From the NCBI GenBank assembly GCA_042408215.1, contig JAYFMW010000021.1, forward strand, positions 1 to 64,000: DNA of 64,000 bases, in the 5' to 3' direction. Made by a program: the position numbers and the translations under genes. This document shows, in pieces, positions 56,085 to 60,715 of this stretch (the stretch's first letter is position 1; every line of letters starts with the position of its first letter). The DNA comes from Microcoleus sp. (GTDB lineage: Bacteria; Cyanobacteriota; Cyanobacteriia; Cyanobacteriales; Microcoleaceae). The notes under the pieces are model-generated. The model made no database searches and was not told the origin of the DNA. It saw only the letters and a program-made list of their open reading frames with translations.

Positions 56085-56228
56085 ACCAGTTTTTTATGAG
56101 GCTGCATAGAATCTGATCCCCCCTAACCCCCCTTAATAAGGGGGGAACAAGATTCTGCTCAAAGTCCCCCTTATTAAGGGGGATTTAGGGGGATCGAGAT
56201 CTATGCAACGACCCATTAAATTGGTATA
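56085..56228. repeat. Nested palindromic repeat: GATCCCCCCTAACCCCCCTT...AAGGGGGATTTAGGGGGATC inside TATACCA..TGCATAGA / TCTATGCA..TGGTATA-like arms
   Basis: The core matches the interior of the MITEs at 35.5 and 40 kb. Confidence 0.75.
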
Positions 56229-56373
56229 AAATAGTGTAAATGGACTTACCAATTGTCTACCACCAAGATTACGTTGCACCCCTCCCCTCCGGTCACCGCT
56301 TCCCGATGGCAAAGTTTCAACTGCTTTACCAGATGCTGCTCGCGGAGGGGGTAGCAGATCGATCGGTACGCCT

Positions 56374-57711
56374 CTAATCGTTTAAAAACTCGACATTGGT
56401 GGACAAAGAGGCATAACTGTAACCATCAAAGCGGTGAACCGCGCGGCAGTGCTTCCAACGAATACTCTGCAAGCGCACATGAGCCACAGTCAAATCAAAT
56501 GCACCGGATTTTCTGACGGTGACTTTACCAACGTGAGTACCAGCGTGTTTCCCAGTAGGAACAATAGCTTTAACCATGTCGCCCGTTTGAAAACCAAAGT
56601 AATTTTTCTGTCGCTCACGTTTGATTAGCTTACCTTCCTTACCACGCTTAGGAAAGCCAAATTTGTCAACTTGACACATTTGACGATTTCCATAACCAAC
56701 AGCCCTTATTGACAGCGGCACTACCCCTGAAACTTTTAGTTTGAGGGGTGTAGATGCCCCAACACAGGCAGCATCCAGCCAGTGAGTTTTAGGTAGGTTT
56801 TGACGACATCGGTTAAACTTTGTCCGCCCACCAGTCCCAACTTCCACGGATAATCCAGTCTCTTTGAGTCGATTAAATAATGCCCAACGGGTAGAATTAA
56901 CGGCAGCAGTGTCGGCTTTCTGTTGTTTTACTTGTCTCAGAATGCGCTGTAACAAGTCAGGTTTTTGGGCTAAAAATTCTCTGAGAGCTTGACGGCCTTT
57001 TTTTTGGTTGCAATTCCTACAAGCAATGCCTAAATTACTAATTCTATTTGAACCACCTTTAGACTTCGGTAAAAGATGCTCAATCTCCAAACGAGTATCT
57101 TTAGCCCCACAGTACATACAGGTATGATTGAATTTGAAAAGCAGAAATTCTCGCACTTCGTAACCAGCTAACTCACCTTGTTGGTATGCGACTCCACTGA
57201 TGTCTGGATTCTCCATGAGTTGAGTGTCAAACTTGACTAATTCCTGAGAAATATCAGAAATCAACGCTAGCTTTTGTAACCTACGAACCCAAGTTACGAT
57301 ATTCTCAACTCGGCTTTGCAGACTGGGTGGGAGCCACCCTGTAGGGCGTTTCCGGTTATCAAAGCGTGGTTGACGATACCGAGTTTTTCGATGGCGTCTT
57401 CCTCTTCTTAACTGGCGGCGTTTGGTTAAAGCATCGCGAATTTGAAAGCCTCTATGTTCTAGTTCGGCGGCCCAAACTACTTCTCCTGTTGCATCATCTA
57501 CCAGTGCTAAGCCAGTCAATTTAGCACCAGGATCTATTTTTAATCGCCAGGGTGCAATTTGGGGATTTGGTAGAACATCTTTCAGGATGATGGTGAACGG
57601 GTAACGTTTCCAGACAGCGGCTTTGCCCTCTTGAAGCAGCATCCTGGCTCGGCCTGGATGGATAGGATTTAGAGGATTTTTGTTGGTGTCTACAACGAAT
57701 ATTTTGCTCAT
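56374..57711 (-). CDS. iscB: RNA-guided endonuclease IscB
   Basis: PLNP (PLMP-like), RuvC-I KIDPG, Arg-rich bridge helix, RuvC-II QELVKFD, HNH CMYC..EHLLPKSKGGSN..CRNCN, RuvC-III HWLDAAC; GGAGG RBS. Confidence 0.95.
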   Translation of the reverse strand: MSKIFVVDTNKNPLNPIHPGRARMLLQEGKAAVWKRYPFTIILKDVLPNPQIAPWRLKIDPGAKLTGLALVDDATGEVVWAAELEHRGFQIRDALTKRRQLRRGRRHRKTRYRQPRFDNRKRPTGWLPPSLQSRVENIVTWVRRLQKLALISDISQELVKFDTQLMENPDISGVAYQQGELAGYEVREFLLFKFNHTCMYCGAKDTRLEIEHLLPKSKGGSNRISNLGIACRNCNQKKGRQALREFLAQKPDLLQRILRQVKQQKADTAAVNSTRWALFNRLKETGLSVEVGTGGRTKFNRCRQNLPKTHWLDAACVGASTPLKLKVSGVVPLSIRAVGYGNRQMCQVDKFGFPKRGKEGKLIKRERQKNYFGFQTGDMVKAIVPTGKHAGTHVGKVTVRKSGAFDLTVAHVRLQSIRWKHCRAVHRFDGYSYASLSTNVEFLND

Positions 57712-57724
57712 ATTGAGCCTCCGA

Positions 57725-57950
57725 ATAATCGGGTGATTTTTGCCTTGGTAATGTTAAGAGGGCTTGTCAGACTAGCAGCACTTCCTTAGCGAAATAAAGA
57801 TGTTTAACTGGTAGCGACAGAGCAAGGAGCTGGCAAGCACTCACAGGGTGTCGTGACCTTCTTAACGTAGTCTGTGGTTAGACTTAACCGGGCTATCTCT
57901 ACCAAGGATTTCTCTGGATTGTCCAGGTTTGTCCAGTGGTTCGCGGATAG
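57725..57950 (-). ncRNA. HEARO / IscB omega-RNA scaffold
   Basis: About 230-nt leader upstream of iscB with a (G)CTATC/GATAGC first stem and HEARO-like blocks CTACGTT, ACACC, TGC..CCAGC..GCTCT, GTTAAACA, AACATT..AGGC. Confidence 0.85.
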
Positions 57951-58482
57951 CAATTTCACACTCCCGAACTTCCTCCCCAAGCATGGATTGAGTTAGTCCA
58001 CGACGACCACTACGTTCAAGCTTACTGCAACGGCACCCTCGATGCCAAAGCTCAGCGACGAATTGGTCTCCCTTGGAGTCCGGCCCTGGTGAACCGCACT
58101 TGCACGGCCCTCGCAGGTACTGCGATCGCAGCTAGACTCGCTTTAGAATCCGGTTTAGCCTGCAATACAGCCGGCGGAACTCATCATGCCTTCCCGAATT
58201 ATGGGTCTGGTTTTTGTATTTTTAACGATTTGGCGATCGCCTCTCGTGTCCTCCAACAATTGGGTTTAGTTCGTCAAGTCTTAATTGTCGATTTAGCTCA
58301 ATAGACGGGAATCCCCACACTAGACCGATCGAAGGTTAGTGTGGGATGAGAGTCGCCCATATCTGGATGACGAGACGAGCAATTTTCATTCTACTTATTA
58401 TTGTAACACCATAATTATTGGTTCCTCAAATATCTAATGTCGAAAATTTCTAGATCTTTATGGATAATATGAGTTCATGTAC

Positions 58483-58511
58483 TTGACCGAGAATAACATA
58501 TCTGATAGAGT
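58483..58511 (+). promoter_or_regulatory. Putative tnpB promoter
   Basis: TTGACC, 17-nt spacer, TAGAGT, with a TGn extension; 33 nt upstream of the ATG. Confidence 0.5.
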
Positions 58512-58544
58512 AATACTAATAGGTGCGACTTTAACTGTGACCCA

Positions 58545-59927
58545 ATGAAAACAACATATCAGTACCAGTTTTATCCAAATACCAATCAAAAGTTAGCCCT
58601 AAACCAGTGGCTCAGAATTTGCCGTTATTGGTATAATCGCCAATTGGGAGATCGCTTGGATTGGTGGGATAACAACCGCACTGCTGTAAATGCTTGTCCA
58701 TCGATCGCCAGTATTTCCCATCCCAGAGAAAAGCCTAACTACTATTCGCAAAAACAACAATTACCCCTCCTCAAAAAAGACTTGGTAAAGGTTTTTCATA
58801 GTGGGGAGTTGTTGGACTTTAAACAGGTAGATTCAACCCTACTCCAAGATGTTTGTAAGCGAGGAGATAAAGCTTTCGAGCGATTTATCGTAGGCGATAG
58901 TCAGGGTAAAAAATCGGGCAAACCCCGATTCAAAACTGAAGCCGATTACCGGACGATGACTTTCGCCACTGCGAGTAATGATTGGATTAAACGGATTCGC
59001 AAGAGTTGGATATATATTCGATTACCGAAACTGGGGGTTGTGAAAGTTCGGATGCACCGCCCAATCCCTTATGGATTTACCATCAAGCAAGCTAGTGTTA
59101 CGAAAAAAGCTGATGGTTGGTTCATTCAGTTAATACTCGAAGACATCTCTGTACCTCAATTCACACCTGATAAAGTTATTCCCACTTGGGATAACTCAAT
59201 CGGTTTGGATGCGGTGTTACATGAAGATGTCTATCTGGCTACTTCCGAAGGTGAAAAACTACCTTGTTTGAAGCCACTTCGCAAGAATAAAGCGAAACTA
59301 GACCGTATTTCTCAGAAACGAAATAAACGGAAACGAGGTTCTAAATCTCGACGTAAATTGGCCAAAAAAGAAGCTATTCGACATCAAAAGATTGCTCGGT
59401 CTCGTAAAGACTTCCATTATAAAACCGCTCATAAGTTGATCGAGACAGGAGCCAAATTTTTCTTTTATGAAGAACTCAATCTTAAAGGCTTAACCAAGAG
59501 AAATAAAGTTAAGCAAGATGATAATGCGAATTATCTTCCCAATGGTCAATCAGCTAAATCAGGGTTGAATAAATCTTGGTTGGATGCTGCATTTGGTCAA
59601 TTTTTCCTGACGCTGGAATACATAGCCGCCAAAGCTGGATCAGTCGTCGTTTCACAAAAACCTGCTTATACCTCAATGGTTCTCTGTTATCGGAATGAAA
59701 TTATTTTCACTGATTGTAGTATGAGAGACTATTGGGACGAGCAAAATTCTTTGATGGTAGATCGTGATATTAATGCTGCGATCAACCTAAAAAGACTGGG
59801 GTTGGACATTTTCCCCAGTATAAAACGCTGTAGTGGGAATCTTTCTATAGTAGGAACTATGGATAAAAGTACCACAAAGGAAATTTTGTATACCCTTAAT
59901 CGGGCTACAAAGAAGCCCACGTCATAG
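58545..59927 (+). CDS. tnpB: RNA-guided endonuclease TnpB
   Basis: YQYQFYP HTH-OrfB, GKPRFK, RuvC-I IGLD, RuvC-II YEELNL, KSGLNKSWLDA, RuvC-III DRDINAAINL. Confidence 0.93.
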   Translation: MKTTYQYQFYPNTNQKLALNQWLRICRYWYNRQLGDRLDWWDNNRTAVNACPSIASISHPREKPNYYSQKQQLPLLKKDLVKVFHSGELLDFKQVDSTLLQDVCKRGDKAFERFIVGDSQGKKSGKPRFKTEADYRTMTFATASNDWIKRIRKSWIYIRLPKLGVVKVRMHRPIPYGFTIKQASVTKKADGWFIQLILEDISVPQFTPDKVIPTWDNSIGLDAVLHEDVYLATSEGEKLPCLKPLRKNKAKLDRISQKRNKRKRGSKSRRKLAKKEAIRHQKIARSRKDFHYKTAHKLIETGAKFFFYEELNLKGLTKRNKVKQDDNANYLPNGQSAKSGLNKSWLDAAFGQFFLTLEYIAAKAGSVVVSQKPAYTSMVLCYRNEIIFTDCSMRDYWDEQNSLMVDRDINAAINLKRLGLDIFPSIKRCSGNLSIVGTMDKSTTKEILYTLNRATKKPTS

Positions 59928-60715
59928 CGTACTCGCTTGACGTGTGGAGTATGTCACATGTAGCTTTGTCTGTCGGTATGGAGGACGACGAATATTTACA
60001 AACCTTGGCTAAATACCTAGCAGATTTGCTCTCGGATGTCAAGCCAGATTTGGTTTTATACGATGCCGGAGTAGACCCTCATCAGGGCGACAAACTGGGA
60101 AAATTAGCTTTAAGTGATACGGGGTTATTTCGCAGGGAAATGCAAGTTTTATCTACTTGTTTGGCGGGGGGTGATCCCGTCGCCTGTGTGATTGGCGGTG
60201 GCTATTGCGATGACATGAATGGGTTAGTTTATCGGCATTCGCTCCTGCACCGAGCGGCGAGTCAAACCTACAGGCAGTATCGACTTTAAGATTTGTCAAG
60301 CCTACTACAAAAATCTAGATTAATTGCAGAAATTGTCGCCCAAATCCTTCACCCCTACATCTGAATCAAAAGCTTGAGATTATTGGTTGGATATGTATAA
60401 TGGATCAGACGAACGCGATCGGGAGCAGGGCGGGTGCGATCGCCCACAAGATGAAGTTAAAGGCAAGTGAGACAACGACTTCCCGGTTGGCGAACGCTCA
60501 CGGGAACCTTGTCACCTGGTTAGTAGTCCAAAACAAATAGTAAAATCAGCAACGACAAATAAGTAGATCCCTTCAGGAGTACAAGTTAGCGTGGTTGTTA
60601 GGTAAGAGCAAACAAATCAACGGCCGGATAGCGATCGCGATCGCCAAAATATAGGGTGCCGAGAATGTAGAGATCATTCTCGACTAGCGTTTAATCAATA
60701 AATAGGAGGTCACTT

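Follow-up and report, generated by a model that had tools for sequence, protein, structure and literature searches.

An IscB–omegaRNA element in a HIP1 site of Microcoleus, probably a non-autonomous IS607-type transposon

Introduction

IscB is the ancestor of Cas9, HIP1 is the most abundant motif and the commonest repeat of cyanobacterial genomes, and the SDR5 repeat of Nostoc is a very short non-coding repeat. The closest described relatives of the locus reported here are the ISC2-type IscB–omegaRNA elements (PMC4810608; ISGst IscB, PMC10055086), in which a solo iscB gene with RuvC and HNH domains has the omegaRNA upstream of it at one end, the guide derives from the flank, the target is not duplicated, a transposase is relied on in trans, and the nuclease gene is opposite in orientation to the tnpB of the partner. 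These elements have a GTCA end and Y1 hairpins and insert at targets of the ATGA and GTGA types; for the ISGst IscB and TnpB the TAM equals the transposase target (Meers 2023, PMC10055086). The accessible part of Kapitonov 2016 (PMC4810608) distinguishes 22 ISC families, which it assigns to Y1, with targets such as GT/GR, N/ATGA and similar (a slash marks an insertion point or junction throughout), none of them CGATCG.

The second group of relatives is the IS607 family (IS607 and IS1535, PMC6188088; CboIStron, 10.1101/2023.11.20.567912; ISXfa1, PMC10711439), for which the accessible parts of these sources describe helically phased motifs about 20-45 bp inside the element and inverted between its ends, a 2-bp core, no duplication, the element core at the left and the target core at the right junction, and a flank base that serves as RNA scaffold. 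More specifically, the available text of Chen 2018 (PMC6188088) has the short motifs phased and set about 20-60 bp inward from the ends, gives a 2-bp GG core without duplication and has most members ending in GG; that of Zedaveinyte 2023 (bioRxiv 10.1101/2023.11.20.567912) reports that, when the core of the circle does not match, the left junction retains the dinucleotide of the circle and the right junction that of the target; and that of PMC10711439 has the fixed right-flank base of IS607 TnpB elements serving as RNA scaffold.

IscB itself is known from IS200/IS605 (Y1) elements only. In the adjacency survey of Meers 2023 (PMC10055086), tnpB occurred together with serine resolvase “but not iscB”, the accessible part of Altae-Tran 2023 contains no IscB–IS607 link, that of a 2026 review places IscB under IS605 only, and IscB serves only as an outgroup in PMC9956272. 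Our literature search, which covered mostly titles and the starts of abstracts and few subscription papers, found no published description of such a link. The table of Kannan 2025, with 400 rows of tested orthologs, was searched by the starts of words, degenerate TAM spellings lying outside the scope of this search; it has no scaffold starting GCTAT or CTAT, no TAM starting GCG, CGA or GAT, and no cyanobacterial names.

Results and Discussion

The window analysed here is a stretch of 64,000 nucleotides from Microcoleus sp. (contig JAYFMW010000021.1, positions 1 to 64,000), in which we recognize the following features:

56240..56365, plus strand: host HDAC-family gene, codons 1-42, interrupted (tblastn with an intact relative of 305 aa)
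56359..56365, plus strand: left half of the target, TCGATCG, which with C57951 rebuilds TCGATCGC (7/8 HIP1)
56366..57950, unstranded: whole non-autonomous IscB element, 1585 bp (empty allele in the relative G008, contigs skipping 1585 nt, second copy)
56366..56410, plus strand: left end of IS607 LE type, G-TACGCCTCTAAT followed by phased motifs at 56390-56395 and 56400-56405
56374..57711, minus strand: iscB, 445 aa (NF040563, 453 bits, cut-off 175; RRXRR and HNH), its 3' end overlapping the left-end motifs
57733..57951, minus strand: omegaRNA (HEARO) scaffold (RF02033, 101.7 bits, model positions 1-211, position 1 being flank base 57951)
57892..57951, minus strand: first RNA stem, GCTATC at 57946-57951 pairing with GATAGC at 57892-57897 (Rfam alignment)
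57918..57950, plus strand: right end of IS607 RE type, TGTCCA at 57920-57925 and 57930-57935, 15 bases and a terminal AG
57951..58295, plus strand: host HDAC-family gene, codons 43-157, followed by a TnpB element; codons 197-305 resume at 59960
57952..57967, minus strand: predicted flank-derived guide (TCGGGAGTGTGAAATT), its length and 3' boundary following IscB omegaRNA geometry (PMC10055086)

An intact and recently mobile element

The stretch 56366-57950, described as an intact IscB element in an earlier sequence-only reading, is confirmed as an intact, recently mobile IscB–omegaRNA element: the IscB, the omegaRNA, empty alleles and a second copy were all found. Excising it in silico yields TCGATCG/CAATTT with the HDAC frame open across the join. 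Three of the five boundary choices are in frame; the cut at 56365-57949 is equivalent, one G being shared between the ends, and the cut at 56367-57951, which is in frame too (D-R-S-E-F), is ruled out because the empty allele of G008 encodes D-R-S-Q-F. That allele reads AGCAGATCGATCG/CAATTTC (L137, 98.7%; the one locus among 30 examined that is this close and has the site), and the empty site GATCGATCG/CAATTT is present in G008 and in two metagenomes. Among four public runs examined as contigs (X11 and X15 being RNA runs), two, X12 and X15, contain contigs with an exact skip of 1585 bases at the insertion place, and further contigs of the same two runs have the element at other sites, with the match spanning 56360 (CGATCG) to 57951 (C). 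The second copy, at C5:441872-443456 of this genome, has 3 differences (99.8%) and lies in the target GGCGATCG/C. No target duplication was found at the insertion by in silico removal, in the G008 allele or in the run contigs; this, the single shared G and the 7/8 HIP1 site, all read earlier from the window, recur in the rejoined sequence and in the G008 allele. A promoter scan gave nothing exceeding chance. A nearly identical copy (L077, G005:C615) has other DNA inserted in its omegaRNA and right end.

The claim that removal restores the HDAC gene in frame held for the frame, which is open through the join; the gene itself is still broken, being split again by a TnpB-only element at about 58296-59959, with codons 158-196 missing. 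Since G008 lacks the IscB element and yet carries this TnpB element (96% over 1829 bases), the HDAC gene was probably already dead when IscB arrived. Upstream of the gene, at 56118-56194, the window contains a long GC-rich inverted repeat, a small dispersed repeat with a depth in the thousands in the public runs.

The IscB protein and its RNA

The protein is a regular member of the IscB family, with a bridge helix, the RuvC residues D60, E157 and H310/D313 and the HNH residues H212/N235, and it also matches IscB in the PDB; the PDB alignments of its C-terminal region are too weak for a TAM to be read from the protein sequence. The proteins of this family, here called HIP1-type after the target described below, have database entries with generic names. 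Upstream of iscB, at the element end, lies the omegaRNA scaffold as a full-length RF02033 match. Its first stem encloses the right-end transposase motifs, standing where the hairpin of a Y1 element would be. That flank base 57951 extends this stem, as had been noticed from the letters, agrees with the Rfam HEARO model, which pairs GCTATC with GATAGC; a plain MFE fold of the RNA does not predict the stem (z=-0.62). Across the family the sixth pair occurs as C-G, U-A, A-U and U-G (37/39 ends with the 3' arm found), pairs 1-4 being fixed by the search pattern.

Several derivatives consisting of the omegaRNA or the ends only (about 32 to 410 bp) have the same ends and target (C3:172215-172619 and C30:201522-201634 of this genome; L028, L031 and L100), and it is possible that they supply trans-acting guides. 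Two further IscBs of this genome (C14:55647-56912 and C7:92425-93690), on a long branch, show a third end type, in which the 5' end of the RNA is neither GTCA nor GCTAT and no downstream hairpin is seen. The viral collection also contains a HIP1-type IscB whose left end is variant (L249, an IMG/VR contig).

Insertion into the HIP1 core

HIP1 is 70-fold above expectation in this genome (G000), where all six two-ended members of the family lie in CGATCG/C, five of them in the full HIP1 octamer; these six include three more with iscB or its remains (C5 twice, C30) and the short derivatives on C3 and C30. A left-end pattern containing CGATCG retrieved 108 stretches from the GTDB collection, mostly from Microcoleus, Coleofasciculaceae, Nostoc and Scytonema records. 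In 39 of them the right end could be located by a profile stopping before the flank, which gave 36 distinct insertions, 22 of them of full length and 14 shorter; the right flank base is C in every one of the 36 (background 53% after CGATCG; p about 1e-10). When the query did not contain CGATCG, that hexamer formed the left flank at 24 of 27 distinct sites of the genus (37 matches, of which 30 loci were read) and at 8 of 10 metagenome loci, the exceptions numbering three and two, respectively. The base preceding CGATCG is G in 26/36 (p=0.015 vs background), and the elements therefore target the 7-mer CGATCGC, with full HIP1 mildly preferred. These counts bear out the proposal, made for the window copy, that the element targets the HIP1 core. 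A mobile sequence precisely within HIP1 has a counterpart in SDR5 (as cited in the accessible text of PMC4390886), which differs in inserting between HIP1 bases 3 and 4, our element doing so at base 6/7 or 7/8.

The crossover core is asymmetric: the left core is GG in 17 insertions and GC in 19, and the right core is GC in all 36, an asymmetry that would follow if the serine transposase leaves the donor core at the left end and the target core at the right end. The GG circle joint predicted earlier (...GGATAG/GTAC...) holds for the window copy, and the 19 of 36 family members with a GC left core depart from it.

Ends of the IS607 rather than the IS200/IS605 type

The hexamers first seen in the window are where they were reported (TCGACA at 56390, TGGACA at 56400, TGTCCA at 57920 and 57930) and are not a chance occurrence, to judge from the same register recurring across the family ends. 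TGGACA, with at most one mismatch, begins at element position 25 in 29/36 and at position 35 in 22/36 left ends, and TGTCCA finishes 25 bases from the right end in 30/36 members and 15 bases from it in 30/36. As in IS607 elements, these phased direct-repeat motifs come without terminal inverted repeats and without duplication.

The layout of gene and RNA, a motif on one side only and the absent duplication would equally fit an ordinary ISC2 element of the IS200/IS605 type, moved in trans by a Y1 TnpA, with CGATCG as an unusual TAM, and the genome offers 20 Y1_Tnp matches. We nevertheless regard this explanation as extremely unlikely. The element has no GTCAA terminus, and subterminal hairpins of the ISC2 kind are wanting: none of 31 family left ends has structure at z<-2, as against 6/8 of the 5' ends of Y1-type IscBs of the same genome at z<-3. 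A GCCTCT and AGAGGC stem at the left end of the window copy was considered as a Y1 hairpin and discarded, its 3' arm being absent from the family consensus. The right-flank base, free in ISC2, is C in 36/36 here, a pattern of IS607 rather than of IS605, and the ends match those of elements that encode a serine TnpA. The earlier contrast with the IS605-type termini of the window thus stands for the GTCAA end and the left hairpins, and has to be softened for the right ends, 10/31 of which show weak structure at z<-2; the IS605-type element checked in the window is the TnpB element only, the GTCAA-ended IscBs used for comparison sitting elsewhere in the genome.

Autonomous IS607 partners with the same left end and target

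At 26 loci the same left end occurs without the omegaRNA right end, and four of these with enough DNA (L027, L032, L033, L093) run directly into IS607 tnpA and tnpB genes. The two TnpAs tested score 193 and 191 bits against NF033518 (cut-off 110). The partner TnpB carries the DPG motif, by which pro-Fanzors are marked in the available text of Yoon 2023 (PMC10711439), its membership there being based on this motif only. The left-end consensus of the partners, CGATCG/GTa.gCCTCTAAT..TGGAcA..TGGACA, parallels that of the IscB elements, CGATCG/cTACGCCTCTAAT..tGGAca..GTggAa. In a set of 14 partner left ends (one spurious row, a second L177 match, having been dropped from 15), 13 are identical to the IscB element at 28-33 of 45 positions and the 14th at 24/45, with motifs starting at 25 (14/14) and 35 (13/14). 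At the right, the 25/15 register before the terminal AG is kept in 12/13 and 10/13 partners, and outside the motifs the ends diverge (20-23/35 identical in 12/13). With internal-sequence queries, CGATCG forms the left flank of 19/20 distinct IS607 left junctions, one internal-query tally, whose query overlapped a conserved host gene, counting only 9 loci with TnpA.

These comparisons establish, at the sequence level, that the IscB element is mobile, inserts without duplication into CGATCG/C (mostly the HIP1 octamer) and has its left-end sequence, end motifs and target in common with cyanobacterial IS607 elements. It differs from these partners, which encode TnpA and TnpB, hold the TnpB RNA in their right end and take both GG and GC target cores. 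From the IS607 elements described in the accessible parts of the sources cited above it differs in having IscB in place of tnpA and tnpB, in a core that is mostly GC rather than GG, and in a target of 6-7 bp (CGATCG plus C) rather than GG or TGGG; from ISC2 elements, whose layout it shares, the reliance on a transposase in trans being predicted here, it differs in its phased motifs, its CGATCG/C target, its fixed guide-side flank base and its serine-TnpA partner.

Hence, we consider it highly probable from these shared features that the element is mobilised in trans by a serine TnpA, as the sequence-only reading had supposed. Its further suggestion, that a serine recombinase would be found between the same ends, came true for the IS607 TnpA/TnpB elements, and no copy combines TnpA with IscB (0/302 loci, 22 viral loci included); the autonomous relatives carry serine TnpA and not the Y1 TnpA that would have spoken against mobilisation of this kind. 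Among 23 IS607/resolvase-like upstream regions of the genome, this left end occurs in two cognate copies only (C5:422237-424072 and C26:10748-12584), in both of which tnpA has a +1 frameshift. We found no intact cognate helper in this genome, its other IS607-like tnpA genes having different ends, and the plasmid collection yielded merely weak tnpA pieces.

These frameshifts lend something to the notion that the IS607 likeness is ancestry only and that another recombinase, be it tyrosine, IS110-type or a host HIP1-directed pathway, now moves the element, as do the target, longer than the GG or TGGG given for IS607 in the accessible sources, and the link of HIP1 to site-specific recombination and SDR5 insertion in the accessible text of PMC4390886. 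We hold this to be very unlikely, given that the spacing from motif to terminus is kept to the base in both element types, that autonomous IS607 elements use the same target, and that no other recombinase gene lies between these ends in the 26 loci whose ORFs were listed.

The partners have some peculiarities of their own. Their tnpB has an open frame from element base 91 onward, which runs over the whole of tnpA in the +1 frame and comprises 560-577 aa in 6/7 copies (e.g., L032:4098-5777 and the two G000 copies), the seventh being internally deleted. Around the end of tnpA an in-frame Met is lacking, and a long N-terminal extension, a non-ATG start or a frameshift fusion comes into question. 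In this IS607 family (L027, L032, L272, L275 and relatives), the target of 6 bp, CGATCG, plus a G/C base is longer than reported IS607 targets, and for its DPG-type TnpB we predict a 5' TAM derived from HIP1.

Proposed transposition cycle, guide and TAM

Taken together, we propose that the element is probably a non-autonomous IS607-type transposon in which IscB and the omegaRNA replace TnpA and TnpB as cargo, with serine-TnpA mobilisation and a HIP1-derived TAM. The TnpA of a partner would bind the phased TGGACA motifs in trans and excise a double-stranded circle with the joint ...GGATAG/GTAC..., which would integrate where CGATCG ends, across a G-(C/G) core of 2 bp, leaving the core of the circle at the left junction and that of the target at the right. 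IscB, guided by the flank beside the right end, would then cut the re-formed empty site, and recombination would restore the element. A search for the circle junction in the contigs of the four runs gave none; contigs alone cannot show its absence.

The TAM is deduced from its overlap with the transposase target, which holds as a rule (Meers 2023), and we judge it quite likely to be HIP1-derived. It would have shifted from the ATGA type to GCGATCG, the invariant flank G becoming the first base of the scaffold. The fixed right-flank base, C on the plus strand, seems to be used as scaffold here as it is in IS607 TnpB elements. Because this G coincides with Rfam model position 1, with the start of the scaffolds of Kannan 2025 (those in the first rows of its table start with the corresponding G, that of GTCA or GTGA) and with the variation of the sixth pair, a guide ending ...GTGTGAAATT with the TAM GCGATCG appears likelier than the earlier register of a guide ending ...AATTG with (C)GATCG. 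The right junction of the element itself, GCTATCC, differs from GCGATCG at two positions, 3 and 7, a difference that self-protection would require (cf. Meers 2023).

It is conceivable that the ends and mobility are those of an IS607 element and that IscB is a mere passenger that cannot cut the empty site, its TAM not having followed the new target or the nuclease being weakly active, with the flank C due to the transposase or to stem closure only. The 14 of 36 insertions that are short derivatives without iscB have the same flank C, the TAM of this IscB is a predicted one, and few of the clade-diagnostic residues are in the C-terminal region (4 of 17 columns, at 379-393, all substitutions). 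Set against this are the open frames and catalytic motifs maintained throughout a diverse clade whose subfamilies are about 56-64% identical, the co-variation of the sixth stem pair, and the matching of TAM and target, which is the rule among tested elements (PMC10055086); on the whole, we think a passenger role unlikely.

The target cores of the two element types bear on the functional IscB that we favour. The right core of the IS607 partners is GG in 5 and GC in 14 cases (n=19), as against no GG among the 36 IscB-type insertions (Fisher p=0.003), and within the GG-left subset the figures for a GG right core are 5/12 and 0/17 (p=0.007), p values that overstate the difference, the five GG-core partner cases being all from one genus. 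A GC-only target core fits filtering of sites by IscB or its RNA; the right-end sequence or the transposase could also cause the bias.

Methylation and origin

GATC and CGATCG methyltransferases generally accompany HIP1, according to the accessible part of Elhai 2015 (PMC4390886), and this genome has 11 C5-methyltransferase matches, from which specificity is not assignable. As CGATCG stays intact at the left junction, the excised site should be methylated, and homing would therefore need a methylation-tolerant nuclease or action just after replication. Hence, the natural substrate argues for tolerance of methylation rather than a block; the gating of cleavage by methylation, raised in the sequence-only reading, found no support here. 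One may go further and picture a serine transposase, a TnpB and a captured IscB that converged on the methylated HIP1/DmtC mark, such that an IscB with a GCGATCG TAM reads methylation and cuts only methylated sites, those of the chromosome, or only unmethylated ones, on newly replicated or incoming DNA. We rate this as improbable; if true, HIP1 would have a dedicated protein reader, and OMEGA nucleases a natural member that senses methylation.

In a tree with the 11 other IscBs of this genome, a single branch separates the HIP1-type proteins from the rest (100/97; 38 rows). Once 15 rows from the viral collection are included (36 rows), they split into two supported subclades, which share an unresolved fork with Y1-type IscBs of cyanobacteria, all within Y1-type outgroups. 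The phylogeny points to a likely swap of ends by a Y1-type ancestor, with one or two origins, in which an ISC element likely exchanged its Y1 hairpin ends for IS607 ends and retained the first RNA stem.

Conclusions

By its sequence features, an IscB OMEGA module joined to IS607 ends and a HIP1-core target appears to be a new combination. The TAM predicted for its IscB is GC-rich, and the IS607 transposase, whose target of 6-7 bp is the most abundant motif of cyanobacterial genomes, might find use in scarless insertion. As a natural transposase swap, it provides a test bed for the TAM following the transposase target, here from AT-rich to GC-rich, and gene-adjacency surveys would overlook an IscB clade that relies on IS607 ends in trans.
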